Of a stretch of DNA of 16,701 bases, positions 49 through 16,669 are shown in pieces. The stretch is from a virus. Where the stretch lies: the UHGV virus genome UHGV-1600828. The stretch is one strand, 5' to 3'. Position 1 is the first letter of the stretch. Every line of letters starts with the position of its first letter. A model generated the notes under the pieces. It was not told the origin of the DNA, made no database searches, and worked only from the letters and a program-made list of their open reading frames with translations. Both the position numbers and the translations under genes were made by a program.

Positions 49-98
49 ATCTACACGGTTGATCTTGAGTTCCACGGTGAAGAAGGGGATTACCAGTA

Positions 99-368
99 AT
101 GAAAGAGCTTGAGTTAAAGAAACCGATTACTGCTCATGGCGAGACACTCTCCGTACTTGAGTTTGATGAGCCCACCGGGAAAGATGTCCGCGAGCTGGGG
201 TATCCCTACCAGATGAATCAGGATGAGTCAGTCAGACTTCTGGCGCATGTGGTATCGAAATACATTGTGCGGCTGGCGAAAGTGCCGCAAAACTCTGTCG
301 ACCAGATGTCTCCGGCAGACCTGAATGCAGCGGCGTGGCTTGTGGCCGGTTTTTTCCTCCAGGCCTGA
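99..368 (+). CDS. Tail assembly chaperone (Mu gp41-like / P2 gpE-like), 89 aa
   Basis: ATG at 99 with AAGGGG upstream. Small acidic protein directly upstream of the tape measure gene. Carries a slippery heptamer near its 3' end. Family assigned from position and architecture. Confidence 0.7.
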   Translation: MKELELKKPITAHGETLSVLEFDEPTGKDVRELGYPYQMNQDESVRLLAHVVSKYIVRLAKVPQNSVDQMSPADLNAAAWLVAGFFLQA

Positions 369-517
369 CGGCTGAATACCTCACTGATCGCTTCTTTGAC
401 TGCGCCAGTTACTGGCGCATTAATCCTTTCGAATTGCTGAATATGCCGATCAGTGAAATTCCCTTGCTGGTCAGTCAGGCAAACAGGATAGAGCAGGAGA
501 AACGCACACATGGCTGA
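335..517 (+). CDS. -1 frame extension of the tail assembly chaperone (predicted fusion product 99..517 via slip at 350-356)
   Basis: Open -1 frame from the slippery site to TGA at 515-517. Its own ATG at 335 has no convincing RBS, so independent translation is unlikely. Arrangement mirrors lambda G/GT and P2 E/E'. Confidence 0.55.
   Translation: MACGRFFPPGLTAEYLTDRFFDCASYWRINPFELLNMPISEIPLLVSQANRIEQEKRTHG
350..356 (+). other. Candidate -1 programmed ribosomal frameshift site T_TTT_TTC
   Basis: Zero-frame codons GGT TTT TTC (348-356) contain a canonical X_XXY_YYZ heptamer. The -1 frame is exactly the frame of ORF 335..517, which ends at 517 overlapping the tape measure start at 510. Confidence 0.6.
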
Positions 518-2342
518 ATTTGAGCTTAAGGCGTTGATCACCGGTGTCGACAGACTTTCTCCCGCGCTGTCGAAAATGCAAAAGAAAATCCGGGGATTTA
601 AACGCCAGGCGGAAGAAGCATCACAGGGTGGGCTGGCGCTTGGTGGCGGACTGGCAGCGGGTCTGACGCTTTCCCTGAAATCTTATGCCGATCAGGAAAA
701 CGCCGCCACCGGGCTGAAAGTCGCCATGATGGATGCGAACGGCGAGGTCGGAAAGAGCTTTCAGGACATCAATAAACTGGCTATTGGCCTGGGTAACCAG
801 CTACCCGGTACAACGGCTGATTTCCAGAACATGATGCAGATGCTGGTGCGTCAGGGGATCCCGGCAGAAAATATTCTTGGCGGTGTGGGTAAAGCGACAG
901 CTTATCTTGCGGTACAACTGAAAAAAACACCGGAAGCGGCTGCTGAGTTTGCTGCAAAGATGCAGGATGCTACCGGAACGGCGTCAGAAGACATGATGGG
1001 GCTGTTCGACACTATCCAGAAGGCGTTTTATCTGGGCGTTGACGATACCAACATGTTGTCCTTCTTCACTAAAACCAGTTCTGTTCTGAAGATGGTGAAC
1101 AAGGACGGTCTTCAGGCTGCACAGAGCCTTGCCCCCATCAGCGTCATGATGGATCAGATGGGGATGAACGGGGAGTCGGCAGGTAATGCCCTGCGAAAAG
1201 TTATCCAGTCCGGATTAAGCGTTAAGAAAATCAGGGACGTTAATAAAGTTATGGCCCGCCAGAAACTCGGGGTACAGCTCGATTTTACTGACGGCAAAGG
1301 GAGTTTTGGCGGTCTTGATAACATGTTCAGGCAACTGGCAAAGCTGCGAAAACTGACCGACGTTAAGCGAACCGGTGTACTTAAGGCAATATTTGGTGAT
1401 GATGCCGAAACCCTTCAGGTGGTCAATGCTCTGATCGATAAAGGAAAGGATGGTTACGATCAGATCCAGCAGAAGATGAATAAACAGGCCAGCCTGAATA
1501 AACGTGTTCAGGCCCAGCTTGGTACGCTGTCCAACCTGTGGGAGGCAATGACGGGGACCGCAACTAACGGCCTTGCGGCTATTGGCGGCGCATTTTCTGG
1601 TGACGTCAAAAATATCACGCAATGGCTGGGGGAGTTAGGGGAAAAATTCACGAAGTTTGCGGATGAAAATCCCCGGGTTATTCGCGGCGTCGTCGGGCTT
1701 GCTGCCGGTCTTGCGATTCTGAAACTGGGATTGATGGGCGTGGGCAGTGCCATCAGTATCGTCAGCAGGATCATGTCGATGACGCCGATTGGCATGATTG
1801 CGACGGCGATTGCCCTGGCTGCGGGATTAATTATCACTAACTGGGATGTTGTCGGACCTTATTTTAAGAAGCTCTGGGAAACCATTAGTCCTTATTTTGA
1901 GGCTGGCTGGGAACTTCTGAAGAAGGTTTTTGCCTGGTCGCCGCTGGGGATGGTGATCAATAACTGGGGACCGGTTGTTAAGTGGTTTCAGGATATGTGG
2001 GATAAGCTGAAGCCGATTATTGAATGGTTTACCGACAGTTCCGGTGACACGGTCGATGCCATTAACTCGGCGCAGTGGGGCGCGGGTGCTTATGATGCTT
2101 ATGGGACGGGAATACCGCCACGGGGATACACTCCTTATCCGGAGGTGGATCCGGCTCAGGCAAACAACGCCTCCGGTGCCACAGGTCCGAATCCCTTCAT
2201 GATTAATAAAGCTACCGCGCCAAAAGTTGATGGTGAGATCAAGGTATCATTTATAAATATGCCACCAGGTATGCGGGTTACGGAAACACGCTCCAGTGGC
2301 ATTGATATAAATCACGATGTTGGCTATACCCGATTTTGGTAG
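510..2342 (+). CDS. Phage tail tape measure protein, 610 aa
   Basis: ATG at 510 with AGGAGA upstream. Long Gly/Ala-rich protein with a hydrophobic segment (…GVVGLAAGLAILKLGLMGVGSAISIV…). Sits between the chaperone/frameshift gene and the baseplate genes. Confidence 0.85.
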   Translation: MAEFELKALITGVDRLSPALSKMQKKIRGFKRQAEEASQGGLALGGGLAAGLTLSLKSYADQENAATGLKVAMMDANGEVGKSFQDINKLAIGLGNQLPGTTADFQNMMQMLVRQGIPAENILGGVGKATAYLAVQLKKTPEAAAEFAAKMQDATGTASEDMMGLFDTIQKAFYLGVDDTNMLSFFTKTSSVLKMVNKDGLQAAQSLAPISVMMDQMGMNGESAGNALRKVIQSGLSVKKIRDVNKVMARQKLGVQLDFTDGKGSFGGLDNMFRQLAKLRKLTDVKRTGVLKAIFGDDAETLQVVNALIDKGKDGYDQIQQKMNKQASLNKRVQAQLGTLSNLWEAMTGTATNGLAAIGGAFSGDVKNITQWLGELGEKFTKFADENPRVIRGVVGLAAGLAILKLGLMGVGSAISIVSRIMSMTPIGMIATAIALAAGLIITNWDVVGPYFKKLWETISPYFEAGWELLKKVFAWSPLGMVINNWGPVVKWFQDMWDKLKPIIEWFTDSSGDTVDAINSAQWGAGAYDAYGTGIPPRGYTPYPEVDPAQANNASGATGPNPFMINKATAPKVDGEIKVSFINMPPGMRVTETRSSGIDINHDVGYTRFW

Positions 2343-2370
2343 CCAGGATTCCCCTCACAGGTATTGCTGG

Positions 2371-2398
2371 TTGTAAGTCATAAATAGAGTGATAGAAT
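2371..2398 (+). promoter_or_regulatory. Candidate sigma70-type promoter for the moron (TTGTAA -16 nt- TAGAAT)
   Basis: -35-like TTGTAA at 2371-2376 and -10-like TAGAAT at 2393-2398 with a 16-nt spacer, in the AT-rich gap after the tape measure stop. Pattern match only. Confidence 0.3.
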
Positions 2399-2433
2399 TA
2401 ATGCACATTTAGAAAAATGTTAATAGGCGAAAA

Positions 2434-2964
2434 ATGAAAGGCTATATCACAGCAAGTGTAATTCTTGGAGCAGCGGCTATTTTTTCATCTCTCATAATCT
2501 CTGGCAACATCTCCTTTAAAGATGAACATATTATTCAGTTATCTGGAGGAGCCATAAAACTTGGTGATGTTTATAAAGAAAATAAATTGATAAGTGCAAA
2601 GATTATTTTTCCAGATAATCAGGGTGAACAGATTCTTGTTGTCGACGGCAATCCTGAAAACTTTAAGGAGGATTTTCAGGAGAAATTAAATAAAGTAATA
2701 AAAACTTTAAATGCGTCAAAGAAAAAAGATGAAGAGAAAGTTAGCCTGGATAATTTAAGTGTTATTGAAGAGTCTAAACTAGAGCTCGTTTCTGCGGTGC
2801 GTTACTCTGCTCAGTATGTTCCTATGTTTACTCTGACGCTGGACAAAAAAGAAATTACCATGCCTAAAAATACGGTAATATTTCCATTTGCCAGCGATGA
2901 AACAGCTAAGTATTTAAATGAACAACAGCAAAAGTATAAAGATTCGTTGTTTCTGACTCGCTAA
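2434..2964 (+). CDS. Moron-encoded membrane-anchored or secreted protein of unknown function, 176 aa
   Basis: AT-rich ORF inserted between GC-rich tail genes. N-terminal hydrophobic stretch (MKGYITASVILGAAAIFSSLIISG) followed by a Lys/Glu-rich body. Has its own promoter-like and terminator-like signals. No recognisable catalytic motif. Confidence 0.6.
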   Translation: MKGYITASVILGAAAIFSSLIISGNISFKDEHIIQLSGGAIKLGDVYKENKLISAKIIFPDNQGEQILVVDGNPENFKEDFQEKLNKVIKTLNASKKKDEEKVSLDNLSVIEESKLELVSAVRYSAQYVPMFTLTLDKKEITMPKNTVIFPFASDETAKYLNEQQQKYKDSLFLTR

Positions 2965-2983
2965 TTAATAAAATTCATTACAA

Positions 2984-3010
2984 GGCCACCTTCTAATAGG
3001 TGGCTTTTTA
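2984..3010 (+). terminator. Rho-independent terminator-like hairpin after the moron
   Basis: Stem GCCACC (2985-2990) / GGTGGC (2999-3004), 8-nt loop, then TTTTT (3005-3009). Confidence 0.6.
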
Positions 3011-3025
3011 ATTTTCGGAGTATAT

Positions 3026-4354
3026 ATGACGTGGAAAGACAGGCTTCAGGACGCGTCATTTCGCGGCGTGCCGTTTAAGGTTGAAGAAGAAAGTGCGGGA
3101 ACCGGTCGCCGTGTGGAAACACATGAATACCCGAACCGCGACAAACCCTATACCGAAGACCTGGGGAAAATCACTTTTCGCCCGTCCATCACGGCTTATG
3201 TGGTGGGAGATGACTGCTTTGACCAGCGCGATCGCCTGATTGAAGCGCTGAATAAACCAGGTCCCGGCACGCTTGTCCACCCGACATATGGTGAGCTGAA
3301 AGTCTGTGTTGACGGGGAAGTTCGGGTCAGCACATCGAAAAGTGAAGGGCGTATTGTCCGCTTTGACCTGAAGTTTGTCGAAGCAGGAGAACTCTCTTAC
3401 CCCACATCAGGTGCGGCGACGGCGCAGACGCTGATGTCATCCTGTTCTGCACTGGATGACTGCATCAGTGACAGCTTCAGCGGTTTCAGTATCGATGGTG
3501 TGGCGGATTTCGTGCAGAACGACGTTATCGGTAATGCCAGCATAATGCTGGGGTATGTTTCTGATGCGATGAAAGTGGTGGATTCTGCCGTATCGGATGC
3601 CGCCAGGCTGTTGCAGGGGGATATCTCGGTACTTCTGCCGCCGCCATCGTCAGGCAAAAATTTCGTTGAGCAGGTGCAGAAAATGTGGCGTACCGGGAAA
3701 CGCCTTTATGGTAACGCCAGCGACCTGGTCACCATGATCAAAACGCTTTCTGGTGTCAGCCTCGGCAGCGATTTGCAACCGCGCGGCGTCTGGAAAACGG
3801 ACAGTAAAACCACCGCCACAGCGACGCAGCAGCGTAACATGGTTGCCAGCACCCTTCGTACGACTGCAATCAGCGAAGCGGCGTATGCCGTTACCCGATT
3901 GCCTGCGCCAACAACTTCTGCGGTGATGCAGAATGCCGCAGTGGGGCAGTCAACAACACCCGCGCAGAGCTCCGGCTGGCCTGCCGTCACGCATCCGGTG
4001 CTGAACAATGCACCGGCGGTGAAAAACACGGTTGACCTGCCAACGTGGGAAGAACTGACCGACATTCGCGACACACTGAATACGGCAATTGATAAGGAGT
4101 TGTCCCGTACAACCAGTGATGCGCTGTTTCTGGCTCTGCGCCGGGTGAAAGCAGATCTGAATGCGGATATCAACACGCGCCTTGAACAGTCTGCTCGGAT
4201 CATTCAGCGCACGCCGGATGAGGTTTTACCCGCGCTGGTGCTGGCGGCGACCTGGTTTGATAACGCGGCGCGTGACGCGGACATTATCCGGCGTAATGCC
4301 ATTACGCATCCCGGCTTTGTGCCGGTAATCCCTCTGAAGGTGCCAGTGCAATGA
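3026..4354 (+). CDS. DNA circularization protein (Mu N/gp43-like), 442 aa
   Basis: ATG at 3026 with GGAG upstream. N-terminus (MTWKDRLQDASFRGVPFKVEEE…HEYP…) matches recalled Mu N-family N-terminal domain. Position after the tape measure; ATGA overlap with the next gene. Confidence 0.8.
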   Translation: MTWKDRLQDASFRGVPFKVEEESAGTGRRVETHEYPNRDKPYTEDLGKITFRPSITAYVVGDDCFDQRDRLIEALNKPGPGTLVHPTYGELKVCVDGEVRVSTSKSEGRIVRFDLKFVEAGELSYPTSGAATAQTLMSSCSALDDCISDSFSGFSIDGVADFVQNDVIGNASIMLGYVSDAMKVVDSAVSDAARLLQGDISVLLPPPSSGKNFVEQVQKMWRTGKRLYGNASDLVTMIKTLSGVSLGSDLQPRGVWKTDSKTTATATQQRNMVASTLRTTAISEAAYAVTRLPAPTTSAVMQNAAVGQSTTPAQSSGWPAVTHPVLNNAPAVKNTVDLPTWEELTDIRDTLNTAIDKELSRTTSDALFLALRRVKADLNADINTRLEQSARIIQRTPDEVLPALVLAATWFDNAARDADIIRRNAITHPGFVPVIPLKVPVQ

Positions 4355-5430
4355 ACGACAATGTCACGCTACGGGTAAATGGCCGGGAGTGGAATGGCTG
4401 GACATCGGTGCGCATCGGTGCCGGTATTGAACGGCTGGCGCGGGATTTCAGCGTGGAGATCACCCGCCAGTGGCCGGGAGATGAGGGTATCACCACGCTT
4501 CAGCCGCGCATTAAAAATGGTTCAAAAGTGGAAGTGCTGATTGGTGATGAGCTGGTGATCACCGGCTGGGTGGAGGCGACCCCCGTTCGTTACGATGCCC
4601 GTTCGGTCAGCACCGGTATTGCCGGACGTAGTCTGACTGCTGACCTGATTGACTGTGCAGCCGAACCGACACAGTTTAACGGACGATCGCTGGTACAGAT
4701 TGCGCAGGCGCTTGCTGCGCCTTTCGGCATTGAGGTGGTGAACAGCGATGCGCCGTCGGGTGTTATTCCGGATGTCCAGCCTGATCACGGTGAAACGGTG
4801 ATCGAGGTGATCAACAAAATACTCGGTCAGCAGCAGGCGCTGGCTTATGACGACCCGCACGGCAGGCTGGTGATTGGTGGTATTGGCTCAACGCGGGCAC
4901 ATACCGCGCTGGTACTTGGGGAAAACATCCTTTCCTGTGATACGGAGAAGAGTATCCGGGAGCGGTTTTCAGTTTACCAGGTGGCGGGGCAGCGTGCCGG
5001 AAACGACGATGATTTCGGTGAGGCCACCACCACCGCGCTGCGGGCCCGCACAGAGGATGCATTTATTGCCCGTTACCGTCCGATGTATATCAGGCAGACA
5101 GGGCAGGCTACGGGGGCAGGCTGTATTGCGCGTGCTGACTTTGAAGCCCGACAACGGGCGGCGCGGACGGATGAAACCACCTATGTGGTGCAGGGCTGGC
5201 GACAGGGTAACGGTACGCTGTGGCAGCCCAACCAGCGGGTGATTGTCTTCGATCCGGTCTGTGGTTTCGACAATACCGAACTGCTTGTCTCGGAAGTCAC
5301 GTTTACTCAGGACCAGAATGGCACCCTGACGGAAATCCGTGTCGGCCCACCTGATGCTTATCTGCCTGAACCCGAAGCCCCCGGCGCGCGGAAAAAGAAA
5401 AAAACCAGAGTACAGGAGGACCCGTTCTGA
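4351..5430 (+). CDS. Baseplate hub protein (Mu P/gp44-like; P2 gpD-like), 359 aa
   Basis: Start overlaps the upstream stop (ATGA). Family assigned from position in the conserved Mu-type baseplate gene order. Confidence 0.8.
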   Translation: MNDNVTLRVNGREWNGWTSVRIGAGIERLARDFSVEITRQWPGDEGITTLQPRIKNGSKVEVLIGDELVITGWVEATPVRYDARSVSTGIAGRSLTADLIDCAAEPTQFNGRSLVQIAQALAAPFGIEVVNSDAPSGVIPDVQPDHGETVIEVINKILGQQQALAYDDPHGRLVIGGIGSTRAHTALVLGENILSCDTEKSIRERFSVYQVAGQRAGNDDDFGEATTTALRARTEDAFIARYRPMYIRQTGQATGAGCIARADFEARQRAARTDETTYVVQGWRQGNGTLWQPNQRVIVFDPVCGFDNTELLVSEVTFTQDQNGTLTEIRVGPPDAYLPEPEAPGARKKKKTRVQEDPF

Positions 5431-5978
5431 TGAAGGCGATTGAAACCATACAGCGACAACTCCTCGGCCTGATTGGGCGGGCGGTGGTGAAAAGCATCAG
5501 TGCCGCCACGAAATGTCAGACCGTGGATGTGTCCCTGATTGCCGGTGAACCCAAAGCCGGGGTTGAACATCTTGAACCCTACGGTTTTACCGCAAGGGCA
5601 AACAGCGGTGCGGAAGCGGTGGTGTTGTTTCCGGATGGTGACCGTTCTCATGCGGTGGTTGTTACGGTGTCGGACCGACGCTACCGCCTGAAAGGGCTGC
5701 AGACGGGTGAGGTGGCTGTCTATGACGATCAGGGGCAGTCCGTGACGCTGACCCGGGCGGGGATCGTGGTGGATGGTGCAGGTAAAACGATCACGTTTCG
5801 CAATGCGCCTAAGGCTCGTTTTGAAATGGACCTGGAAGTGACCGGACAGGTGAAAGACCTGTGCGACTCCAGCGGCACCACCATGTCAGCGATGCGGCTT
5901 GCCTATAACGGGCATCGTCACAGAGAGAACGGTCAGGGCAGTAACACCGACAAACCTGATAAAGCGATGGAGGCATGA
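5430..5978 (+). CDS. Baseplate spike/assembly protein V-like (Mu gp45-like), 182 aa
   Basis: TGATG overlap with the upstream gene. Size and position typical of gpV-like spike proteins. Confidence 0.8.
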   Translation: MKAIETIQRQLLGLIGRAVVKSISAATKCQTVDVSLIAGEPKAGVEHLEPYGFTARANSGAEAVVLFPDGDRSHAVVVTVSDRRYRLKGLQTGEVAVYDDQGQSVTLTRAGIVVDGAGKTITFRNAPKARFEMDLEVTGQVKDLCDSSGTTMSAMRLAYNGHRHRENGQGSNTDKPDKAMEA

Positions 5979-6403
5979 TGGAACTGTGGCTGACGGTGAA
6001 CGGTAAACGCACCTGTGCCAGCGCACCGATGGATCCGCTGACCCGTGCCGTGGTGATTTCCCTGTTCACCTGGCGGCGGGCTGAACCTGATGACAATGCC
6101 GACGTCCCGATGGGATGGTGGGGGGATACCTGGCCTGCGGTACAGAATGACCGTTACGGCTCCCGACTGTGGCTGCTTCAGCGCAGCAAACTGACCAATC
6201 AGCTGGTGCAGACGGTAAGGGGGTATATCCGCGAATGCCTGCAATGGATGATTGATGACGGCGTGGTGTCCCGTATTGATCTGGATATCCGCCGCACCGG
6301 GATTAATGAACTGGGTAACAGTATCACTCTCTGGCGTCGTGACGGACCGGTAATGATTTCTTTTGATGATCTGTGGAGTGCGATAACGCATGGCGGACAG
6401 TGA
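5975..6403 (+). CDS. Baseplate wedge protein (Mu gp46-like / gpW/gp25-like), 142 aa
   Basis: ATGA overlap with the upstream gene. Small protein between the spike gene and the J-like gene. Confidence 0.75.
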   Translation: MMELWLTVNGKRTCASAPMDPLTRAVVISLFTWRRAEPDDNADVPMGWWGDTWPAVQNDRYGSRLWLLQRSKLTNQLVQTVRGYIRECLQWMIDDGVVSRIDLDIRRTGINELGNSITLWRRDGPVMISFDDLWSAITHGGQ

Positions 6404-7448
6404 ATTTCAGCGCCCGACGCTGGCAGAAAATATCAGTATGCTCCGTAACGATTTATTCGCCAGGCTGGACGTCAGCGACACGCTCCGGCGCATGGATGAA
6501 GACGTGCGGGCAAAGGTGTATGCGGCGGCGCTGCATACGGTTTACGGTTACATCGATTATCTGGCAATGAACATGCTGCCTGACCTGTGCGATGAGTCCT
6601 GGCTGGCGCGACATGCTGCGATGAAACGGTGTCCGCGCAAGGGAGCCACGGCTGCCAGTGGGTATATGCGCTGGGAAGGTGTCAGCGATGGCCTGAAGGT
6701 GACCGCCGGGAGTGTTATTCAGCGCGATGACCTGGTGCAGTACACGACAACTGACGATGCAACCAGCTCCGGTGGTGTCCTGCGCGTGCCGATCGCCTGC
6801 TCAAGTGCAGGTGCGGTCGGTAACGCTGACGACGGTACGGCATTAATCCTGGTCACGCCGGTGAATGGTCTGCCGTCTTCCGGTGTGGCTGACACCCTGA
6901 CAGGCGGATTTGATACTGAAGAGCTGGAAACGTGGCGCGCCCGCGTCATTGAGCGGTATTACTGGACGCCGCAGGGCGGGGCTGACGGGGACTATGTTGT
7001 CTGGGCTAAAGAAGTGCCCGGCATTACCCGCGCATGGACATACCGTCACTGGATGGGAACGGGAACTGTCGGTGTGATGATTGCCAGCAGTGACCTGATT
7101 AATCCCATTCCGGAAGAATCAACGGAAACGGCGGCAAGACAACATATCGAGCCACTGGCCCCGGTGGCAGGCTCTGATTTGTATGTGTTTAGGCCGGTGG
7201 CACATACGGTGGATTTTCATATCCGCGTGACGCCGGACACACCGGAAATACGGGCTGCCATCACCGCGGAGTTGCGTTCGTTCCTGCTGCGTGATGGTTA
7301 TCCGCAGGGAGAACTGAAGGTATCGCGTATCAGTGAGGCGATTTCCGGTGCGAACGGGGAATACAGCCATCAGTTGCTTGCACCGACAGACAATATCTCC
7401 ATTGCAAAAAATGAACTGGCGGTTCTGGGGACGATTTCATGGACGTGA
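6390..7448 (+). CDS. Baseplate J-like protein (Mu gp47-like), 352 aa
   Basis: Overlaps both neighbours (translational coupling). Size and position typical of baseplate J-family proteins. Confidence 0.8.
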
Positions 7449-8023
7449 CAAACGATGATTACATCCGTCTGTTGTCGGCACTGTTGCCCCCCGGTCCGGC
7501 GTGGTCAGCCAGCGATCCGGCGATTGCCGGTGCGGCACCGTCATTAACCCGTGTTCATCAGCGTGCGGATGCCCTGATGCGGGAGCTGGATCCGCGCACC
7601 ACCACTGAACTGATAAACCGCTGGGAGCGTCTGTGCGGCCTGCCGGATGAATGTATTCCGGCAGGGACGCAGACCCTTCGCCAGCGTCAGCAACGGCTGG
7701 ATGCGAAGGTTAATCTGGCGGGCGGCATCAATGAGGATTTTTACCTTGCACAGCTTGCTGCCCTGGGCAGACCAGATGCCAACATCACGCGATACGACAA
7801 AAGCACGTTCACCTGCTCATCGGTCTGTACTGACGCGGTGAATGCGCCGGAATGGCGGTATTACTGGCAGGTCAACATGCCAGCCGCCACAAACACCACC
7901 TGGATGACATGTGGCGATCCCTGTGATTCCGCGCTGCGTATCTGGGGCGACACCGTTGTCGAATGTGTGCTTAACAAACTCTGCCCGTCGCATACCTACG
8001 TAATTTTTAAATATCCGGAGTAA
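7439..8023 (+). CDS. Tail protein I-like (Mu gp48 / YmfQ-like), 194 aa
   Basis: Overlaps the J-like gene by 10 nt and lies immediately upstream of the tail fibre gene. Confidence 0.75.
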
Positions 8024-8026
8024 TCC

Positions 8027-8848
8027 ATGCATCGTATAGACACGAAAACCGCGCAGAAGGATAAGTTCGGCGCGGGTAAGAACGGTTTTACCCGTGGTAA
8101 CCCCCAGACCGGCACACCTGCCACCGATCTGGATGATGACTACTTTGACATGTTGCAGGAGGAACTTTGCAGTGTTGTGGAGGCATCCGGTGCCAGCCTA
8201 GAGAAGGGGCGGCATGACCAGCTGCTTACAGCGCTTCGTGCGCTGCTGTTAAGCCGCAAGAATCCGTTTGGCGATATCAAATCGGATGGCACGGTGAAAA
8301 CGGCTCTCGAAAACCTTGGTTTGGGAGAAGGTGCTCCAGCTATTGGCGTTCCGTTCTTCTGGCCGTCCGCCGCAATGCCAAATACTGTAATCGACAGTTG
8401 GTCCAGTATGGTGTTTTTGAAGTTCAACGGCGCGAAATTCTCTGCCACTGATTACCCTGTGCTGGCGAAAGTGTTTCCGGCGCTAGCATTACCTGACGCA
8501 CGGGGTGATTTCATTCGTATCTGGGATGATGGGCGCGGGATTGATGTCGGACGTACCCTACTTTCAGGGCAATCACACACAATTATGGATCATGCACACA
8601 ATATGGAATTGTGGACGGGGGACGGGCTTGCCGCAGGAAGTGCACGGGAAGGAGTAAACCCAGGAATACTGGCTACATACGGTGACGGGGGAATAGTTAA
8701 AACGGACGAACCCGGTCTTAAGGTGCCTTCCTCACTACGAGCTCTTAGCTCTCGTAGTGTTAAACGTTATGGTGAAATTAGTGGAAATGTAGATACAGAA
8801 ACCCGTCCACGAAATATTGCATTTAACTTTCTGGTGAGGGCTAAATAA
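8027..8848 (+). CDS. Tail fibre protein, 273 aa; constant N-terminal part (to ~aa 97) plus the currently expressed variable C-terminal part inside the invertible segment
   Basis: ATG at 8027. An invertase crossover site lies inside the coding sequence at 8304-8329 (…ALENLGLGE…). A silent alternative C-terminus on the minus strand shares the same GLGE junction. 1-nt overlap with the downstream assembly gene. Confidence 0.8.
8304..8329 (+). other. Left invertase crossover site (hix/gix/pix-like, 26 bp) inside the tail fibre gene
   Basis: CTCTCGAAAACC-TT-GGTTTGGGAGAA. Half-sites resemble the Hin-family TTCTC..AAAACC pattern around a 2-bp core (8316-8317). Its inverted partner is at 10177-10202. 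Confidence 0.6.
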
Positions 8849-9441
8849 TGATACCTGTTTTTGATGAAAATGGGCTGGCTACAGTGCCGGGCGATATGCG
8901 TTGTTTTTATTATAATGCAGTAACGTATGAATATACCGGCTGGTCTGATGAATATATTAATACTGGCGTAAGTATACCCGCCTGTTCCACTGGTATTGAC
9001 CCGGGCGAAAACATCCCGGGAAAAGTGGCAGTATTTACGGGTAAGGGATGGAGCCATGAAGAAGACCATCGCAATGAGACCGTTTACTCAACTGAAAATG
9101 GCGCAGCTGTTACAGTGGATTATATCGGTGCCATCAAAGACGGTTATGTCACGCTTTCACCGTTAACGCCATACGATAAATGGGATGGTGAGAAATGGGT
9201 GACGGATACCGAGGCACAGCATAGCGCCGCAGTAGAAGCGGCAGAAGCACAGCGCCAGTCGCTGATTGATGCTGCAATGGCTTCCATCAGTCTGATTCAA
9301 CTGAAATTACAGGCTGGGCGGAAGCTGACGCAGCCAGAAAACACCCGACTTAACGCTGTGCTGGATTACATTGACGCGGTGACGGCAACAGATACCAGCA
9401 CAGCGCCGGACGTCATCTGGCCTGAACTGCCGGAGGCGTAG
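8848..9441 (+). CDS. Tail fibre assembly protein (currently expressed copy), 197 aa
   Basis: 1-nt overlap with the fibre gene stop. Position and size typical of Tfa/Mu U-like chaperones. Confidence 0.75.
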   Translation: MIPVFDENGLATVPGDMRCFYYNAVTYEYTGWSDEYINTGVSIPACSTGIDPGENIPGKVAVFTGKGWSHEEDHRNETVYSTENGAAVTVDYIGAIKDGYVTLSPLTPYDKWDGEKWVTDTEAQHSAAVEAAEAQRQSLIDAAMASISLIQLKLQAGRKLTQPENTRLNAVLDYIDAVTATDTSTAPDVIWPELPEA

Positions 9442-9856
9442 ACCATTCAATATCTGGCGCACCGGAAGTATCGACCAGTTCCAGTGCGTCCAGATAATCC
9501 AGCCACAAATTATATTGCGCCAGTTCCTCACCTTTCAGACGACCAATTGATGCTTTACCTGGCCATTGTTTACTGTTTATGTATTCGTTGGCCTGGTTAA
9601 TCAATTGCTGCTTTTTAGTTTCGGCTGATGCAATTTGTTCTTCACGTGTTGGTGGAGGAATATCTGCCCATGCAGGCAGTCCATCCTCTCCGACACATCT
9701 GTATTTTCCTTCTGGTGGTGTATCATAGAAATATTCCCTGAAAATTACTTCGTCTATATCAACACCTTTTTCTTCAGGCCATTCACCTTTTTCAACATAA
9801 AGAGACTGAAGTTCGTAAGGATATGCCAGGTTGTTTACGTACAGATATTTCATCAT
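9413..9856 (-). CDS. Alternative tail fibre assembly protein (silent in this orientation), 147 aa
   Basis: Minus-strand ORF convergent with and overlapping the + strand assembly gene by 29 nt. Lies immediately downstream (minus sense) of the alternative fibre C-terminus. Confidence 0.7.
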   Translation of the reverse strand: MMKYLYVNNLAYPYELQSLYVEKGEWPEEKGVDIDEVIFREYFYDTPPEGKYRCVGEDGLPAWADIPPPTREEQIASAETKKQQLINQANEYINSKQWPGKASIGRLKGEELAQYNLWLDYLDALELVDTSGAPDIEWSTPPAVQAR

Positions 9857-10189
9857 TACCAGCCCTTAGCGAAAAACGCACCACCTTCAAGACCATAATT
9901 GCAGTGAGCTATGAAGCCGGTAGTGCTCCAGTTGGTCGCCCCCCACATATTCCCGCCCCCGAAACCACCATCGCACACAATTACAATGCCCGGTGTCTGT
10001 GTAAATGGAATCGGGAATGAAACATTGGCGGATACAGGCCCGTGTTCACCAGGAAAACTAATTCGTCCCCACTGTTCAATTGAACCATCTGGCATTTTTC
10101 GCCAGCCTGAACCTGATGCATATGATGACATATCAGGTATCTGATTTTCCCCTGTTCCCACATTCCGTTTTGCCGCTTCTCCCAAACCA
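9856..10189 (-). CDS. Alternative tail fibre variable C-terminal segment (promoterless and startless; expressed only after inversion)
   Basis: Minus-strand frame reads …[19 protein letters not shown]… through the right crossover site. The GLGE junction matches the + strand fibre at the left site. The ORF-track start at 10230 lies outside the segment and is probably not used. Confidence 0.65.
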
Positions 10190-10202
10190 ACGTTTATGAA
10201 AA
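10177..10202 (-). other. Right invertase crossover site (inverted partner of 8304-8329)
   Basis: Plus strand TTCTCCCAAACC-AA-CGTTTATGAAAA. Its reverse complement shares GGTTTGGGAGAA with the left site. About 55 bp upstream of the invertase start. Confidence 0.6.
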
Positions 10203-10256
10203 TGCAGAAATAACGAGCAAATGGCATCATTCCTGCTTTTGTCAGGGAGATCCACC

Positions 10257-10811
10257 ATGCTTATTGGCTATGTACGCGTATCAACAAATGACCAGAACAC
10301 CGATCTACAACGTAATGCGTTGAACTGTGTAGGATGTGAACTGATTTTTGAAGACAAGATAAGCGGTACGAAGTCCGAAAGGCCCGGACTGAAAAAACTG
10401 CTCAGGACATTATCGGCAGGTGACACTCTGGTTGTCTGGAAGCTGGACAGGTTAGGGCGCAGTATGCGGCATCTTGTTACGCTGATAGAAGAGTTGCGCC
10501 AGCGTGGCGTGAATTTCCGAAGCCTGACTGACAGTATTGATACCAGTACCCCAATGGGCCGTTTCTTTTTTCATGTCATGGGTGCCCTGGCTGAAATGGA
10601 ACGAGAACTGATTGTTGAACGAACAAAAGCTGGACTGGAAGCTGCTCGCGCACAGGGACGAATTGGTGGACGTCGTCCCAAACTTACACCAGAACAATGG
10701 GCGCAGGCCGGGCGATTAATTGCATCAGGCGTTCCTCGCCAGAAGGTGGCGATCATCTATGATGTTGGTATATCGACACTGTATAAGAAGTTTCCGGTCG
10801 GAGATAAATGA
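10257..10811 (+). CDS. Site-specific DNA invertase, serine recombinase of the Hin/Gin/Pin/Cin family, 184 aa
   Basis: ATG at 10257 preceded by GGGAGA. N-terminus [18 protein letters not shown] with catalytic Ser in VRVSTNDQ, and a C-terminal helix-turn-helix region (…GRRPKLT…STLYKK…) match recalled Gin/Hin sequences. ORF-track start at 10221 adds 12 unlikely residues. Confidence 0.9.
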
Positions 10812-10850
10812 AACCGTAGCACGTCGTATGCAAGAAGATCGTGCTGCGGT
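10793..10850 (+). repeat. Imperfect direct repeat copy 1 (invertase 3' end plus downstream hairpin)
   Basis: …CCGGTCGG…GAAACCGTAGCACGTCGTATGCAAGAAGATCGTGCTGCGG. Contains a dyad CCGTAGCACG / CGTGCTGCGG. Similar to 11820-11870 at roughly 80% by eye, with indels. Confidence 0.55.
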
Positions 10851-10871
10851 TTATGCTTATCACTTAAAGAC

Positions 10872-11741
<870 letters not shown>

Positions 11742-11819
11742 CTAACCCTTTGAATTTACATAGCGCAAAAAGATACCTTTCCTCATAATGTGAGCTAATT
11801 TTATGTTTCGTTTGATGAT

Positions 11820-11870
11820 CGGGTCGGTCTCGAAACCCGTAGCCACGTCATATGCAAGAACGTGCTACGA
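11820..11870 (+). repeat. Imperfect direct repeat copy 2 (partner of 10793-10850), upstream of the GIY-YIG gene
   Basis: …CGGGTCGG…GAAACCCGTAGCCACGTCATATGCAAGAACGTGCTACGA, with the same dyad and central TATGCAAGAA as copy 1. Confidence 0.55.
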
Positions 11871-12083
11871 CTGGCTGGTGAACTTCCGATAGTGCGAGTA
11901 TTGAATGATTTCCAACTGTTATCGATTTTGCGTATTTTTTGCATGAGAGGATTTTTACCTCCTCCCACCGATCCTCCATGGCTTTACGCCAGTGTCTCTG
12001 GTCTGCTATGTGCCAAAAGTAGACATTGCTGACATAAAATATATGATTTGACCAACTACAACCGAAGAATAGTCCAATACATC

Positions 12084-12112
12084 TTGGGTCTACATCCAAC
12101 TAGTTATAGAAT
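12084..12112 (+). promoter_or_regulatory. Candidate promoter for the 12150 gene (TTGGGT -17 nt- TAGAAT)
   Basis: -35-like TTGGGT at 12084-12089 and -10-like TAGAAT at 12107-12112. Pattern match only. Confidence 0.25.
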
Positions 12113-12149
12113 CCCGAGTATACATGTTAGTTTTGGACATTCTAATCAC

Positions 12150-12569
12150 ATGAAATATTGCTACCTGATAATTTTAAGCTTGACTATTTCTTCTGCTCAG
12201 GCTGAGACATTTCCCGCCAAGCTAACCTGTAATACGGGTGAACAAATTACTCTTAAAGTTACTGGTCCAGAGCAGCGACTGATCTACACTTCTTCACTCT
12301 ATGGAACATTCCATGGATATCTCGATGTATTTAAAGGGTTATCACCTGAGCGTCAATATGAGGTACTTGCCAATATTCATGGAATAGCTCGATATAGGGA
12401 CAGCCCGTTACATTTTACTCTCCTAATGAAACGAACCAATGGTGAGATGGATAATGGCTCAATTATCTATCGATATACCTACCTGAAAGACGAGCAACTG
12501 ATTGATGAAGAAGGACATTGCAGTCCGATAAAAGATGGCGGATTTATTGAGGGGAGCAAAAGTTACTAA
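12150..12569 (+). CDS. Small secreted/periplasmic protein of unknown function, 139 aa with predicted signal peptide
   Basis: ORF-track start at 12048 is a TTG. First ATG at 12150 gives MKYCYLIILSLTISSAQA|ETFP…, a typical Sec signal peptide with an AQA cleavage motif. Two Cys in the mature part. No strong SD. Confidence 0.5.
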   Translation: MKYCYLIILSLTISSAQAETFPAKLTCNTGEQITLKVTGPEQRLIYTSSLYGTFHGYLDVFKGLSPERQYEVLANIHGIARYRDSPLHFTLLMKRTNGEMDNGSIIYRYTYLKDEQLIDEEGHCSPIKDGGFIEGSKSY

Positions 12570-12884
12570 GGCCAAGCGTATAGTTATCGGTATGCTTACC
12601 GTTTGCAGACCCCACGGCGCTCAGGCAGCCCGCTCCGTGCCAATAGCAGGCATTACTATGGTCTGTTCCGTAACAGTCATTTTTACCAAAGTATATGGTT
12701 AGAACTATGCCGAAAATGCCCTCATACCATAATTAGAACTAACAATTAATTTTTTAAATTAAAATAGTTTAAAGAGTCATTTTTAATCACTTATTTATCG
12801 TGCTTATAGCTCGAAAGATACACCTTATCATCATCCCCTGTTACAATGTAGGGAGTAGGTCAATAAGATTAGAAGGAGATTTAA

Positions 12885-14351
12885 GTGAAAAAAATCAGTG
12901 ACGAACAAATTAATATCGAGGCTCAATCAGGATATAGACCATGGACTATAGATTCTGGTATCGGATTGCTTCCCTTTTCAGAATTAGGTGATCGAGAATT
13001 TGAGTTGCTATGTTATTTGTTAGTAAAGAACGAAATTGAAGATGGAAAGCATAAAAATATATCCTCAATATCTTTAATGCAAGGAGTTTCTGAAAGAGGA
13101 CGCGACTGCGTGCTATACCATAACGGTGTTGTAAGTGGTTTAATACAATGTAAAAAAATGCAAGGTAGAATAACTAGACCGCAAGCATTAAGAGAAATAA
13201 TTAAATTTTTATTGTTTTCCATTATTGATAATAGTTTGCTTCCCGCTCCTGATTGTTTCGAATATAAGTTGTATGTATCAAATGACATCGCTGAAACTAC
13301 AAACTCACTAATTCATTCTTACTCAACCGAAGTTGAGGTGGAAATAAAGTCTGATACTATCAGTAAGTATATAAAAGATGTTGTATCTGAATACGAGTCA
13401 TTCAAAATTTTTGAAAACAGCCTACCAATTAGTAAAGTTATTGATCTTTTGAGACGGATAAATGTAACCGCATCAAATGCAACAGATTTAACCTTGCGAG
13501 TTCATAAGTATGATTCATTGTTATCATTGTTTTTTAATGTAAAAACTGTAATCGACTTAGAATCTGCAGATAAAGTTATACGTAACGCGCTTGATGACTA
13601 TGGTTTAAAATACTTGACCGATGAAGACTTAAAACAACTTCAAATTCGCATTTCAAATACTAAAGAAGAAAATCGAATAAATTTAGGTTTTGTGGATTTC
13701 TTTGGTTATAACAAAGAGTTTTTTAAATCCTTGAAAGGCGAGCCATTTAAACAAGTGATAGAAGCGGTTGCGTCGGTAACATTATCATTAGATAAGTATT
13801 TAATGGAATTCATAAATAGTAAAATCAATGAGCTAGTTTTTGAAAACGTCACAATAAAATTATTAAATCCAGGGAGGATTCACCCTTTCAGTGTGGGCGT
13901 GGTGGCACCTTACCTATTTCAGAGACTGTCCATTAAAGTCGTCTCAAGAAAGTTGCCAACAGAGTTAGTCACCAAATTTTATGAACAAGCATCTCTGTCC
14001 AAAAAGGAATTAATCGACTCGATAGCAATACAGCTCTTTGAAACAAGCGAAAGAGTTATGAAAGGAGATTTCAGTCAGTTAGTGGGAAATCCAGAAGACA
14101 TACAGTTTAAAAAGAGAATATTCACTCATATACATAATGGATTCAACAGTATAGAAGATGCAAAAACTACTTTTTCTCGAGACATCCAGATTATAATGCC
14201 AACATTAGATTTTATAGAAGAAAAAATAGGTGAGCTATTACAAGAAGAGCGTACTGTGGTAATAAAAGACGCCTCTTTTTTGGATAATGATGATGAGATT
14301 AAGAAAATAGCAAAAACGCTGAGTATGATCGAACCCAATCCAGGCGCATAG
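12885..14351 (+). CDS. 488-aa protein: N-terminal Mrr/restriction-endonuclease-like (PD-(D/E)xK-type) motif plus large uncharacterised C-terminal domain; candidate defence protein
   Basis: GTG start at 12885 with AAGGAGA RBS 6 nt upstream. N-terminal …REFELLCYLL…GVSERGRDCVL…GLIQCKKM… resembles the recalled Mrr-catalytic pattern (E … D … QxK). Remaining ~380 aa are Lys/Glu/Ile-rich with no motif recognised. Confidence 0.7.
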   Translation: MKKISDEQINIEAQSGYRPWTIDSGIGLLPFSELGDREFELLCYLLVKNEIEDGKHKNISSISLMQGVSERGRDCVLYHNGVVSGLIQCKKMQGRITRPQALREIIKFLLFSIIDNSLLPAPDCFEYKLYVSNDIAETTNSLIHSYSTEVEVEIKSDTISKYIKDVVSEYESFKIFENSLPISKVIDLLRRINVTASNATDLTLRVHKYDSLLSLFFNVKTVIDLESADKVIRNALDDYGLKYLTDEDLKQLQIRISNTKEENRINLGFVDFFGYNKEFFKSLKGEPFKQVIEAVASVTLSLDKYLMEFINSKINELVFENVTIKLLNPGRIHPFSVGVVAPYLFQRLSIKVVSRKLPTELVTKFYEQASLSKKELIDSIAIQLFETSERVMKGDFSQLVGNPEDIQFKKRIFTHIHNGFNSIEDAKTTFSRDIQIIMPTLDFIEEKIGELLQEERTVVIKDASFLDNDDEIKKIAKTLSMIEPNPGA

Positions 14352-14387
14352 AATAACTGTAGTTTTGGTATTTTTATTTTTAGTAGC

Positions 14388-14413
14388 TGTGTTAGTGTAA
14401 TTGCACTAACACA
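14388..14413. repeat. Perfect 10-bp-stem inverted repeat (CTGTGTTAGTG-taattg-CACTAACACA)
   Basis: Stem 14388-14397 pairs with 14404-14413 around a 6-nt loop. Not followed by a U-run on either strand, so not a canonical intrinsic terminator. Confidence 0.5.
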
Positions 14414-14417
14414 CTCC

Positions 14418-14470
14418 TTGAGCTGCTCCCCGTTGCTTAGGACACTTCAATGTTAGTCATGAAGTAGTGA
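14418..14470 (+). repeat. ~50-bp imperfect direct repeat, copy A (partner at 16647-16701)
   Basis: TTGAGCTGCTCCCCGTTGCTTAGGACACTTCAATGTTAGTCATG… aligns with TTGACCTGCTCCCCGTTGATTAGTACACCCCGATGTTAGTAATG… at the window end, roughly 80% identical by eye. Confidence 0.6.
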
Positions 14471-14745
14471 ACTTCCGCTCATCGCTCATAACAGACATAA
14501 ACTTCAGTTATGGCATAAAGGTATGCATGCTGGGTGGGGAAAGTATGAAGGAAAAGAAGACTGCTGCGCCGTTTGTCGTCACGTTTATCTTCATTGGCTA
14601 TGCAAGTCGTAATACAAGGTGGGACAAAACTGAGACACATAAGGCCTCGCAATGGCTTGCAAGGCTTTACATGTTTTGATGTGGTGGGACGTGTGAGCGC
14701 AGTGTTGATGGGGTAATGCTTTGAATTAGAAGTGGATTCTTATAA

Positions 14746-14790
14746 TTCGTAATGCGAAGGTCGTAGGTTCGACTCCTATTATCGGCACCA
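14746..14790 (+). other. 3' fragment (~45 nt) of tRNA-Thr(CGU) (thrW-like); likely prophage att junction (attR-type remnant)
   Basis: TTCGTAATGCGAAGGTCGTAGGTTCGACTCCTATTATCGGCACCA: anticodon-loop remnant reading CGT, T-arm GTAGG-TTCGACT-CCTAT, 3' acceptor strand TATCGGC, discriminator A and CCA. Upstream sequence cannot form the 5' acceptor, D-arm or anticodon stem, so it is not an intact tRNA. Matches the recalled E. coli thrW 3' end. Confidence 0.7.
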
Positions 14791-15254
14791 TCTTTTCTCG
14801 TAAAATCATCAAGTTACTATTGCAGTATTTTGCTTTGTTCAACACTAATGTGCAATTTTGCGCGTTGTAGGTGTGGCAAAATTGTGGCAAAGCTAATTGG
14901 TCAGCATTTGCATCATTACGCTAAACAAACTACTTCCTTATAAACGTAATGTGTTGACCTTATCGATGCGTTGCATGAAAGACAGTTTAGTGATGAAAAA
15001 TCTTATAAATTAACAGCTTAAATACATTATCCGATAGAGCTAAGTGCCAGAAAGGGACACTCAGGTTACATAACAATGAGTGATACAGTTCACGTAGTGA
15101 AGGTACTATGCCTAGGTGTTTGATTACACTTTGATCATTGATGATACGCTCATGAAGGTATTACTTTCCTGTAATGAGCAGGTAGGTAACGATGTCGAAC
15201 TAAATGAATTTATAGTAAACTTTGCAACAAGAGAACAAGGGAGTATGAGGGGTT

Positions 15255-16241
15255 ATGGCTACTGCAGAGCAGATCAAAGCTTTATTGAAAAGCCACGTTG
15301 ATCGTGATGATCAGCGTTTCTTTTCTATTGCTTTGCAGGTGGCAGCTAAGGAAGCAAGGCAAGGTCATCATAAGCTTGCTAATGATATAAAAAACTTAGT
15401 TGATAAAAATCAGAAAACAACGAGTTCTGTAGGTTTAGTTGAAAAACGACTTACACCATTTGTTAAGCAGCCTGATGGTGATCTTAAGGGGTTACTTGAG
15501 CAAACGAACAAGCCAGTACATCTTCAAGATCTGGTGATTTCTGGAAGCGTTAGGGAAAGATTGAATCAGGTTCTGCTTGAACAAAAACAGAAAGATAAAC
15601 TTTCTGAGTTTGGGCTTATTCCAAGAAGAAAAATTCTTTTCACTGGTCCTCCCGGTACTGGTAAGACAATGTCCGCATCAGTCATTGCTACAGAGTTAAA
15701 GCTACCACTTTATACAGTCGTCTTAGATAATCTAATCACTCGCTATATGGGTGAAACTGCAGCTAAGCTGCGTTTAATTTTTGACCACATACGGCAAACA
15801 AGAGCTGTATATTTTTTTGACGAGTTCGATGCTATAGGAACTCAGCGTGGCGCTCAGAATGACGTTGGAGAAATTCGTAGGGTCTTAAATTCTTTTTTAA
15901 TGTTTGTAGAGCAGGATGATTCTGAGAGCATAGTTTTAGCTGCAACCAATCATCCAGAGCTTTTAGATCGCGCCTTATATAGACGATTTGACGATATTAT
16001 ACCGTTCACAAGGCCTGAGGATAATCTAATCAGGAATCTTATTGAACAGAGACTCGCTGTCTTTGACCTCGGTAATTTATTTTGGAGTGAGATCATTGAT
16101 AGTGCTTCAGGTCTAAGTGCAGCGGAGATCACGCGAGCAAGTGAAGATGCTGCCAAAGAATCAGTGCTTTATAATGCAAACAATATTACAACCGATTTGT
16201 TAGTAAAGGCTATAAAGCGTAGGCAAGAAAGTAGACAATAA
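15255..16241 (+). CDS. Classic-clade AAA+ ATPase, 328 aa
   Basis: Walker A GPPGTGKT, Walker B VYFFDEFD, sensor-1/second region of homology LAATNHPELLDRALYRRFD with an Arg-finger-like RR. ~120-aa N-terminal non-ATPase region. GAGGGG RBS-like upstream. Confidence 0.8.
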   Translation: MATAEQIKALLKSHVDRDDQRFFSIALQVAAKEARQGHHKLANDIKNLVDKNQKTTSSVGLVEKRLTPFVKQPDGDLKGLLEQTNKPVHLQDLVISGSVRERLNQVLLEQKQKDKLSEFGLIPRRKILFTGPPGTGKTMSASVIATELKLPLYTVVLDNLITRYMGETAAKLRLIFDHIRQTRAVYFFDEFDAIGTQRGAQNDVGEIRRVLNSFLMFVEQDDSESIVLAATNHPELLDRALYRRFDDIIPFTRPEDNLIRNLIEQRLAVFDLGNLFWSEIIDSASGLSAAEITRASEDAAKESVLYNANNITTDLLVKAIKRRQESRQ

Positions 16242-16249
16242 GGGATGAA

Positions 16250-16669
16250 ATGACTACCAACAAGAGGCATATTTTATTAAACGGCTATGTTTCCCCCGAA
16301 AACTATCGCTCTAGGAGCAATGGTCGTAGTCCCCAAGTCCCAGCTCGTGATCGAGCGGTACATGGTATATCATTACTAAATCAGTATAGCCGTATATTGA
16401 ATCATTATGATGAAAGACCGAGGCTTCCCCCTGTTACTGATGAAAAAGGGATTTATGTTAGGCTAATCAGTTTTGAACAATGCGATCTTCCTATAGATAA
16501 AATCGATAATACTTATTTCAAGCTTTGTTCTTTAGTTAAATCAAATAATCGTGAAACTGCGATTATATACATTAATGAAAATGACAGAACTAAATTCACT
16601 AAAAAAATAAATGACTATTTGAATCCATCGAAGGATGGTATCGAGTTTGACCTGCTCCCCGTTGATTAG
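16250..16669 (+). CDS. Hypothetical protein, 139 aa, co-operonic with the AAA+ ATPase
   Basis: ATG 8 nt after the ATPase stop with AAGGGA RBS, suggesting co-transcription and coupling. No recognisable motif. Its 3' end lies inside repeat copy B. Confidence 0.6.
   Translation: MTTNKRHILLNGYVSPENYRSRSNGRSPQVPARDRAVHGISLLNQYSRILNHYDERPRLPPVTDEKGIYVRLISFEQCDLPIDKIDNTYFKLCSLVKSNNRETAIIYINENDRTKFTKKINDYLNPSKDGIEFDLLPVD

Follow-up and report, generated by a model that had tools for sequence, protein, structure and literature searches.

A displaced thrW fragment as the probable attR core of an SfV/SfI-type prophage standing in tandem with an ietAS-bearing island

For islands inserted into tRNA genes, it is a general rule that a regenerated tRNA gene and a displaced tRNA fragment mark the two ends of the element (PMC4383910), and thrW is one of the recognised integration hotspots (PMC7545054). 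The phages SfI, SfII, SfV, SfX and P22 all insert into thrW beside proA, and their cargo genes lie directly upstream of attP (PMC3636060). The same study prints 46 identical bases as the core of attP, attL and attR of SfI, and this core is common to SfII, SfV, SfX and P22 (PMC3636060). Moreover, SfI was demonstrated experimentally to use attL of a resident SfX prophage, with its regenerated thrW, as an insertion site, which generates tandem arrays (PMC3306764). Here, we analyzed the virus genome entry UHGV-1600828, a metagenome contig of 16,701 nucleotides (nt) bounded by insertion sequences (IS) and hereafter called the window, with a focus on a short piece of tRNA-Thr(CGU) close to its right end. 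Our comparisons indicate that this piece is very probably the 46-bp core of the attR of an SfV/SfI-type temperate myovirus inserted in thrW, and the middle core of a tandem arrangement in which thrW is followed by the phage, the core and an island. This assignment draws on the identity of the core, the homology of the phage arm beside it, the layout of complete genomes and the alternative place of the island behind an intact thrW, each of which was shown.

The plus-strand letters of the fragment at 14745-14790, ATTCGTAATGCGAAGGTCGTAGGTTCGACTCCTATTATCGGCACCA, match the intact tRNA-Thr(CGU) genes of Escherichia coli VREC0761, ECONIH4 and K-12 at 46 of 46 positions, and the intact VREC0761 gene was called by ARAGORN as a tRNA-Thr with anticodon CGT. 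The fragment comprises the last base of the 5' strand of the anticodon stem, the CGT anticodon loop, the variable loop, the T arm, the 3' acceptor strand and CCA; T14791, immediately behind it, is also common to the downstream flanks. At this position, the window thus carries the complete 46-bp core of P22/Sf-type attR sites in thrW. When the core pattern was searched with up to three mismatches (<=3), one match was found in the window and none in 200 shuffled sequences, so a chance match is excluded. Across the E. coli genome collection, the core was present at 7,582 places in 5,017 genomes, with up to four copies (<=4) per genome. A sequence-only reading of the window had described a 45-nt piece running from the anticodon loop to CCA and starting at 14746; its identity stands, and its extent is corrected to 46 nt since A14745 also matches. 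That reading had also found no 5' half of a tRNA upstream of the fragment, which is borne out by three comparisons. ARAGORN called no tRNA in the window, Rfam gave no tRNA family at E<=1 over 14000-15400, and the bases upstream of the core (GAATTAGAAGTGGATTCTTATA) are unlike the 5' half of thrW, lacking the 5' acceptor strand, the D arm and the 5' strand of the anticodon stem. Rfam matches to mir-6 and sR19, which are eukaryotic RNAs, were at chance level only and were discarded.

The intact T arm and CCA, together with the non-coding surroundings, might point to a tRNA pseudogene in decay, or to a functional small RNA derived from a tRNA and encoded by the phage, with no relation to integration. 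But the fragment differs from thrW by zero substitutions, so there is no decay, and for a small RNA neither a tRNA or other Rfam family nor an excess of folding was detected (folding of window 14700-14800 did not exceed that of shuffled sequences, z = -0.70). Furthermore, both the place and the sequence of the fragment coincide with experimentally mapped att cores, which leaves a pseudogene or small RNA with only a very slight chance of being correct.

The DNA on the left of the core is that of a phage attachment site. Positions 14620-14791 of the window (172 nt) are 96-98% identical to the P arm and core of attP in SfI, SfII, SfIV and SfV and about 83% identical to the corresponding DNA of P22-like phages, and the P arm is identical to the left flank of attR in VREC0761. 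In the SfI record JX509734, these exact 46 bp are annotated as 'attP core', and int lies 14 nt further on. The homology to attP stops at the core, to the right of which follows the DNA that lies behind the intact thrW of ECONIH4. In a four-way alignment, the window reads P-O-B', SfI attP reads P-O-P', VREC0761 attL reads B-O-P' and ECONIH4 thrW reads B-O-B', and every change of partner falls at the edges of the core.

These boundaries also bear on the possibility that the core is only the remnant of the island's own attL, and that phage DNA was brought beside it by IS rearrangement or homologous recombination rather than by site-specific integration. The ends of IS30 and ISSen4 bound the contig, IS are plentiful around thrW in related strains, and the core does serve as the thrW-side boundary of the island. 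However, the P arm runs unbroken up to base 14744 at 96-98% identity to Sf attP, and the homology switches exactly at the core edges, as it does in lysogens where the phage is the single occupant and in SfI attR. In addition, the identity to thrW begins at A31 in the window, giving the 46 nt of the phage type. By comparison, 49 nt (CGC plus the 46) are common to thrW and the terminal repeat of CP4-6 in K-12, and likewise to the middle core of ECONIH4. An origin of this junction by rearrangement is therefore highly improbable, and we retain attR of an SfV/SfI-type prophage as the identity of the core.

Complete genomes supply the parts of the locus that lie outside the window. At least seven complete E. 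coli chromosomes, including those of VREC0761, ECONIH4 and 0H26, carry prophages that match positions 54-14791 at 100% identity; all of these matches start at window 54-56 and nearly all end at 14790-14792. In VREC0761, proA is followed by thrW, a 14-nt gap, a tyrosine recombinase gene on the opposite strand whose product is 99% identical to SfI Int, a prophage of ~40 kb (lambdoid, with an HK97-type head and a Mu-type tail) and then the core. Strain B27 shows the full layout proposed for the window, namely proA-thrW-int, a 41-kb prophage, P arm, core and IetA. Its distal core has a 1-nt deletion (GG to G), so the exact core search missed the B27 attR; the junction shows no other difference. 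The phage occupies thrW alone in 1297KP and 19SZHZ886Rt, where the attR core abuts the native yagP/paoD flank, which in K-12 lies behind the distal core of CP4-6. An attL consisting of an intact thrW and an integrase gene of the P22/Sf family was present in all complete genomes examined that carry the same prophage, that is VREC0761, ECONIH4 (at the middle core) and B27. We infer that the source genome of the contig still has an intact thrW and int, both of which would lie outside the window.

These results support several proposals made from the sequence alone. The fragment had been taken as the att core of a tRNA-integrating prophage, and it agrees letter for letter with the SfI core in both the paper (PMC3636060) and the SfI record. 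The element had been placed on the left of the fragment, in keeping with the P arm and with the identity of window 54-14791 to known prophages. The tail module and cargo genes had been read as the distal end of that prophage, and the VREC0761 core does follow a prophage of ~40 kb that starts at thrW-int. Likewise, the expected intact tRNA-Thr(CGU) with an adjacent integrase on one replicon was found, as proA-thrW-int, in complete genomes with the identical prophage.

Since the window is a MEGAHIT-style metagenome contig (ENA ERZ27334011 k115_42828) and the core occurs in more than one copy per genome in many E. coli, the junction could in principle be a chimera joined by the assembler at the 46-nt repeat. 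However, the same contig is present in two ENA metagenome assemblies, one version being 16,821 nt long, and the junction is thus found in a second independent assembly (ERZ28659374). The junction of P arm, core and ietA is also common to 11 complete genomes, including B27 and VTB97584v, and judging by its name, the contig was assembled with a k-mer longer than the repeat of 46-47 nt. An assembly chimera is scarcely credible, given this recurrence of the junction across independent assemblies and complete genomes.

Three points weigh against the assignment of the core to a phage attR in a tandem array. Firstly, the window itself contains neither thrW nor int nor the left two thirds of the prophage, and it starts in the end of an IS30. 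Secondly, this IS30 interrupts the tail-tube gene of the prophage about 45 nt short of its stop codon, and the prophage of the source genome may therefore be rearranged or defective, as judged from this insertion. Thirdly, no complete genome in the collection joins the right part of the window and the cargo at 100% identity, and the best junctions are 95-98.6% identical. With respect to the contig edges, the first 55 nt of the window are also identical to an IS30 copy in ECONIH4, and the last 55 nt are identical to a stretch of VREC0761 (L004 10570-10624) that immediately precedes the ISSen4 transposase gene. The features of the window are listed in Table 1.

Table 1 Features of the window and the evidence used to assign them
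Feature	Position	Strand	Basis
Right end of IS30, left contig edge	1-55	+	Identical to last 55 nt of K-12 IS30A (L011 11208-11262)
Tail and baseplate module of SfV/SfI-like (Mu-type tail) prophage, with tail assembly and start of tail fibre gene	56-8330	+	Sf homology, PGAP annotation
Tape measure gene	510-2342	+	Within tail module
DNA circularisation gene	3026-4354	+	Within tail module
Baseplate genes	4351-8023	+	Within tail module
Pin-type invertible tail-fibre segment, then pin invertase gene	8311-10811	+	Inverted repeats, Pfam
PD-T4-3 (LEM-3-like GIY-YIG) anti-phage defence gene, first in cargo slot	10872-11696	-	PADLOC, Pfam
Hypothetical cargo gene, 139 amino acids	12150-12569	+	Coding sequence in ECONIH4 and ENA contigs; mechanical open reading frame starts at 12048
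Cargo protein of 488 amino acids, candidate defence gene	12885-14351	+	Nuclease domain by fold comparison
P arm of phage attachment site (phage side of attR)	14620-14744	+	Sf-phage attP homology
att core, displaced 3' tRNA fragment	14745-14790	+	46 nt = thrW tRNA-Thr(CGU) nt 31-76
thrW-proximal left end of IetAS-bearing CP4-6-type island, non-coding leader	14791-15254	+	ECONIH4 identity
ietA, AAA ATPase of IetAS defence system	15255-16241	+	PADLOC IetA E=5.5e-77; Pfam AAA E=1.8e-29
ietS 5' part (S8 subtilase), cut by IS after about 132 codons	16250-16646	+	ECONIH4 identity ends at ~16646-16647
Left end of IS3-family ISSen4, right contig edge	16647-16701	+	VREC0761 identity

The DNA on the right of the core belongs to another element. 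Positions 14745-16647 (1903 nt) match ECONIH4 at 100% identity, and there the core lies within an intact thrW. The thrW locus of ECONIH4 holds three tandem elements and three direct copies of the core (L005 982-1027 and 44906-44981; L006 7572-7617). The intact thrW is followed by a 43.9-kb island with ietAS, remnants of conjugation genes, a sucrose operon and many IS. At the far end of this island, an integrase that is 89% identical to K-12 IntF is encoded about 110 nt from the second core. Behind the second core come the same SfV-like prophage (100% identity), the third core, an IS66 element and the CP4-6-like genes ykfI and yafW. CP4-6 of K-12 shares this unusual layout, as its intF also lies at the end distal to thrW. 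The phage-type boundary of 46 nt in the window and the ECONIH4 layout together indicate that the ATPase operon belongs to a separate island of the CP4-6 type and forms its thrW-proximal end. Two options had been left for this operon from the sequence alone, island DNA of the flanking host or an older tandem element, and the second is favored, as identical DNA opens the ECONIH4 island behind an intact thrW. By these alignments, the core has two roles, as attR for the phage and as the boundary on the thrW side for the island to its right. Only 1.86 kb of the island lies inside the window; the IntF-type integrase and the terminal repeat were seen in the ECONIH4 island, whose first 1.9 kb is 100% identical to window 14791-16646.

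The integrase of the ECONIH4 island showed no significant similarity to Sf/P22 Int (best E = 0.22). Its gene (L005 1139-2533) is annotated by PGAP as a pseudogene with an 'internal stop'; from the alignment it may be intact, as the stop lies upstream of an internal Met that aligns with IntF residue 26. We also considered whether the left flank of the island is a relic of a P' arm, on account of a short motif (TAAAATCA..AAGTTAC) after the core in the phage, island and CP4-6 flanks. This was rejected, as blastn-short returned only chance words of 8-10 nt. In several strains, the thrW island contains an additional ysgD-corA copy between IS1 elements, a unit resembling a composite transposon (L002 9219-12430; L005 34074-37285; L012 1240-4451).

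The genes for the IetA AAA ATPase and the IetS S8 protease, which define an IetAS system, are adjacent in the window. The intact ECONIH4 orthologue of ietS encodes an S8 peptidase of 829 amino acids that matched IetS in PADLOC (2.9e-34) and Peptidase_S8 in Pfam (4.3e-54). The IetAS system of the window genome is probably inactive, given that ietS is cut by ISSen4. The ISSen4 insertion also creates a fusion reading frame of 139 amino acids at 16250-16669.

A sequence of events compatible with this arrangement can be proposed. The thrW of the window lineage would already have held an island of the CP4-6 type (IntF) with ietAS at its start. The attP of the incoming phage would have brought a replacement copy of thrW nt 31-76, and a tyrosine integrase of the P22/Sf family would have exchanged strands within the 46-nt block of identity; judging from other integrases that target tRNA genes, the crossover would probably fall in the anticodon-loop region. 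At attL, beside int, the phage-borne copy would then complete thrW, whose original 3' part would be displaced by about 40 kb to the cargo end of the prophage, forming attR. Because an island was resident at thrW, the displaced core would adjoin the left end of this island and not core-genome DNA. Applied to the window, the insertion of SfI into the attL of SfX (PMC3306764) implies that the element proximal to thrW is the newer one. By this analogy, the window lineage would have acquired the IetAS island first and the phage later, and the order in ECONIH4 would be the CP4-6-like element, then the phage and then the IetAS island. Since the two elements of the window stand in the opposite order in ECONIH4, their acquisitions would be dated differently in the two lineages.

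The body of the prophage lies on the left of the core. Its tail and baseplate module is 96.7-97.2% identical to those of SfII, SfI, SfV, SfIV and SKA5 up to about position 8330. There, inverted repeats of 20 nt (8311-8330 and 10176-10195, 95% complementary) enclose a 1.8-kb segment with tail-fibre and assembly genes, followed by the pin gene (10221/10257-10811), which is annotated as pinE, a site-specific DNA recombinase, and matched Resolvase and HTH_7 in Pfam. The invertible segment and pin constitute a host-range switch of the Pin/Gin type.

Between pin and attP (~10850-14620) lies a slot in which GC content drops from about 55% to 32-39%, and whose gene content differs in every strain looked at. 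It holds gtrABC in SfI, a type II restriction-modification system in B27, an HNH endonuclease in VTB97584v, a RES-domain protein (RES NAD+ phosphorylase) in 19SZHZ886Rt, an acyltransferase and three hypothetical proteins in 1297KP, and HTH/ImmA, BRO-N and AAA ATPase genes in H7. In the window, it contains the PD-T4-3 gene and the reading frames of 139 and 488 amino acids. PD-T4-3 was identified by PADLOC (PDLC04031, E=2.7e-140, profile positions 1-255 of 256) and by the Pfam domain LEM-3_GIY-YIG (E=2.4e-14); its gene stands directly after pin and is kept in many relatives of the window prophage. The 139-amino-acid reading frame had no family match in PADLOC, Pfam and further searches. For the 488-amino-acid protein, searches against Pfam, PHROGs, PADLOC and PDB sequences gave nothing significant, and its domains were assigned by fold comparison only, as an N-terminal PD-(D/E)xK nuclease domain (Mrr/Cap4/LmuA-like) and an uncharacterised helical C-terminal domain. 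One of its homologues is cargo of a P2-like prophage and another lies in a small integrase island, settings that fit a putative role in defence. A further mechanical reading frame of 70 amino acids (14467-14679) overlaps the start of the P arm, has no family matches and is probably not a gene. From its content across strains, the slot appears to behave as a hotspot for cargo and defence genes. It may further be speculated, tentatively, that it is a hypervariable anti-phage defence hotspot of SfV-like thrW prophages and that the 488-amino-acid protein represents an undescribed single-gene defence system.

The assignment of the core fixes the right end of the prophage at base 14790 and gives the IetAS genes to a different, probably older element, which helps the annotation of the thrW hotspot and the reading of its history. 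The junction itself is already known biology and involves no new mechanism, as earlier work has described att scars made of tRNA fragments, the thrW hotspot, tandem occupancy and the 46-bp core of the Sf phages and P22 (PMC3636060, PMC3306764, PMC4383910, PMC7545054). Its sole forward-looking value lies in the variable cargo slot beside attP as a place to seek new defence genes.

Among described systems, the attR and attP sites of SfI, SfII, SfIV, SfV, SfX and P22 have a 46-nt core identical to that of the window. The likeness to the Sf phages extends to the tail module, which is 97% identical to those of SfV, SfI and SfII, and to the position of cargo genes directly upstream of attP. The prophages identical to the one in the window also resemble SfI in their Int (99% identical) and in the distance of int from the core (14 nt). 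In contrast, where SfI carries gtrABC, the window prophage has no O-antigen genes of this kind, and the searches of its slot, where serotype-converting phages have gtrA-gtrB-gtr(type) or oac directly upstream of attP, gave no glycosyl- or acyl-transferase match. With gtrABC replaced, the window prophage is not a serotype-converting phage. Moreover, the homology to the Sf phages stops at about 8330, where the window has the Pin invertible tail-fibre segment that the Sf phages lack. The attR of the window also differs from that of Sf lysogens in its E. coli host and in its B' arm, where another island takes the place of yaiC or yagP. CP4-6 of K-12 is similar to the ECONIH4 island in its thrW site, its IntF-type integrase and a terminal core with 49 nt of thrW, whereas its thrW-proximal genes are ykfI-yafW and those of the island in the window are ietA and ietS, the latter cut by ISSen4. 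The closest parallel to the tandem arrangement is the SfI-SfX lysogen of Shigella flexneri (PMC3306764), in which the newer element is likewise nearest to thrW and a middle core stands between the two elements. The resident in that lysogen is a phage, whereas in the window it would be a CP4-6-type island whose far end, as seen in ECONIH4, has an IntF-type integrase.
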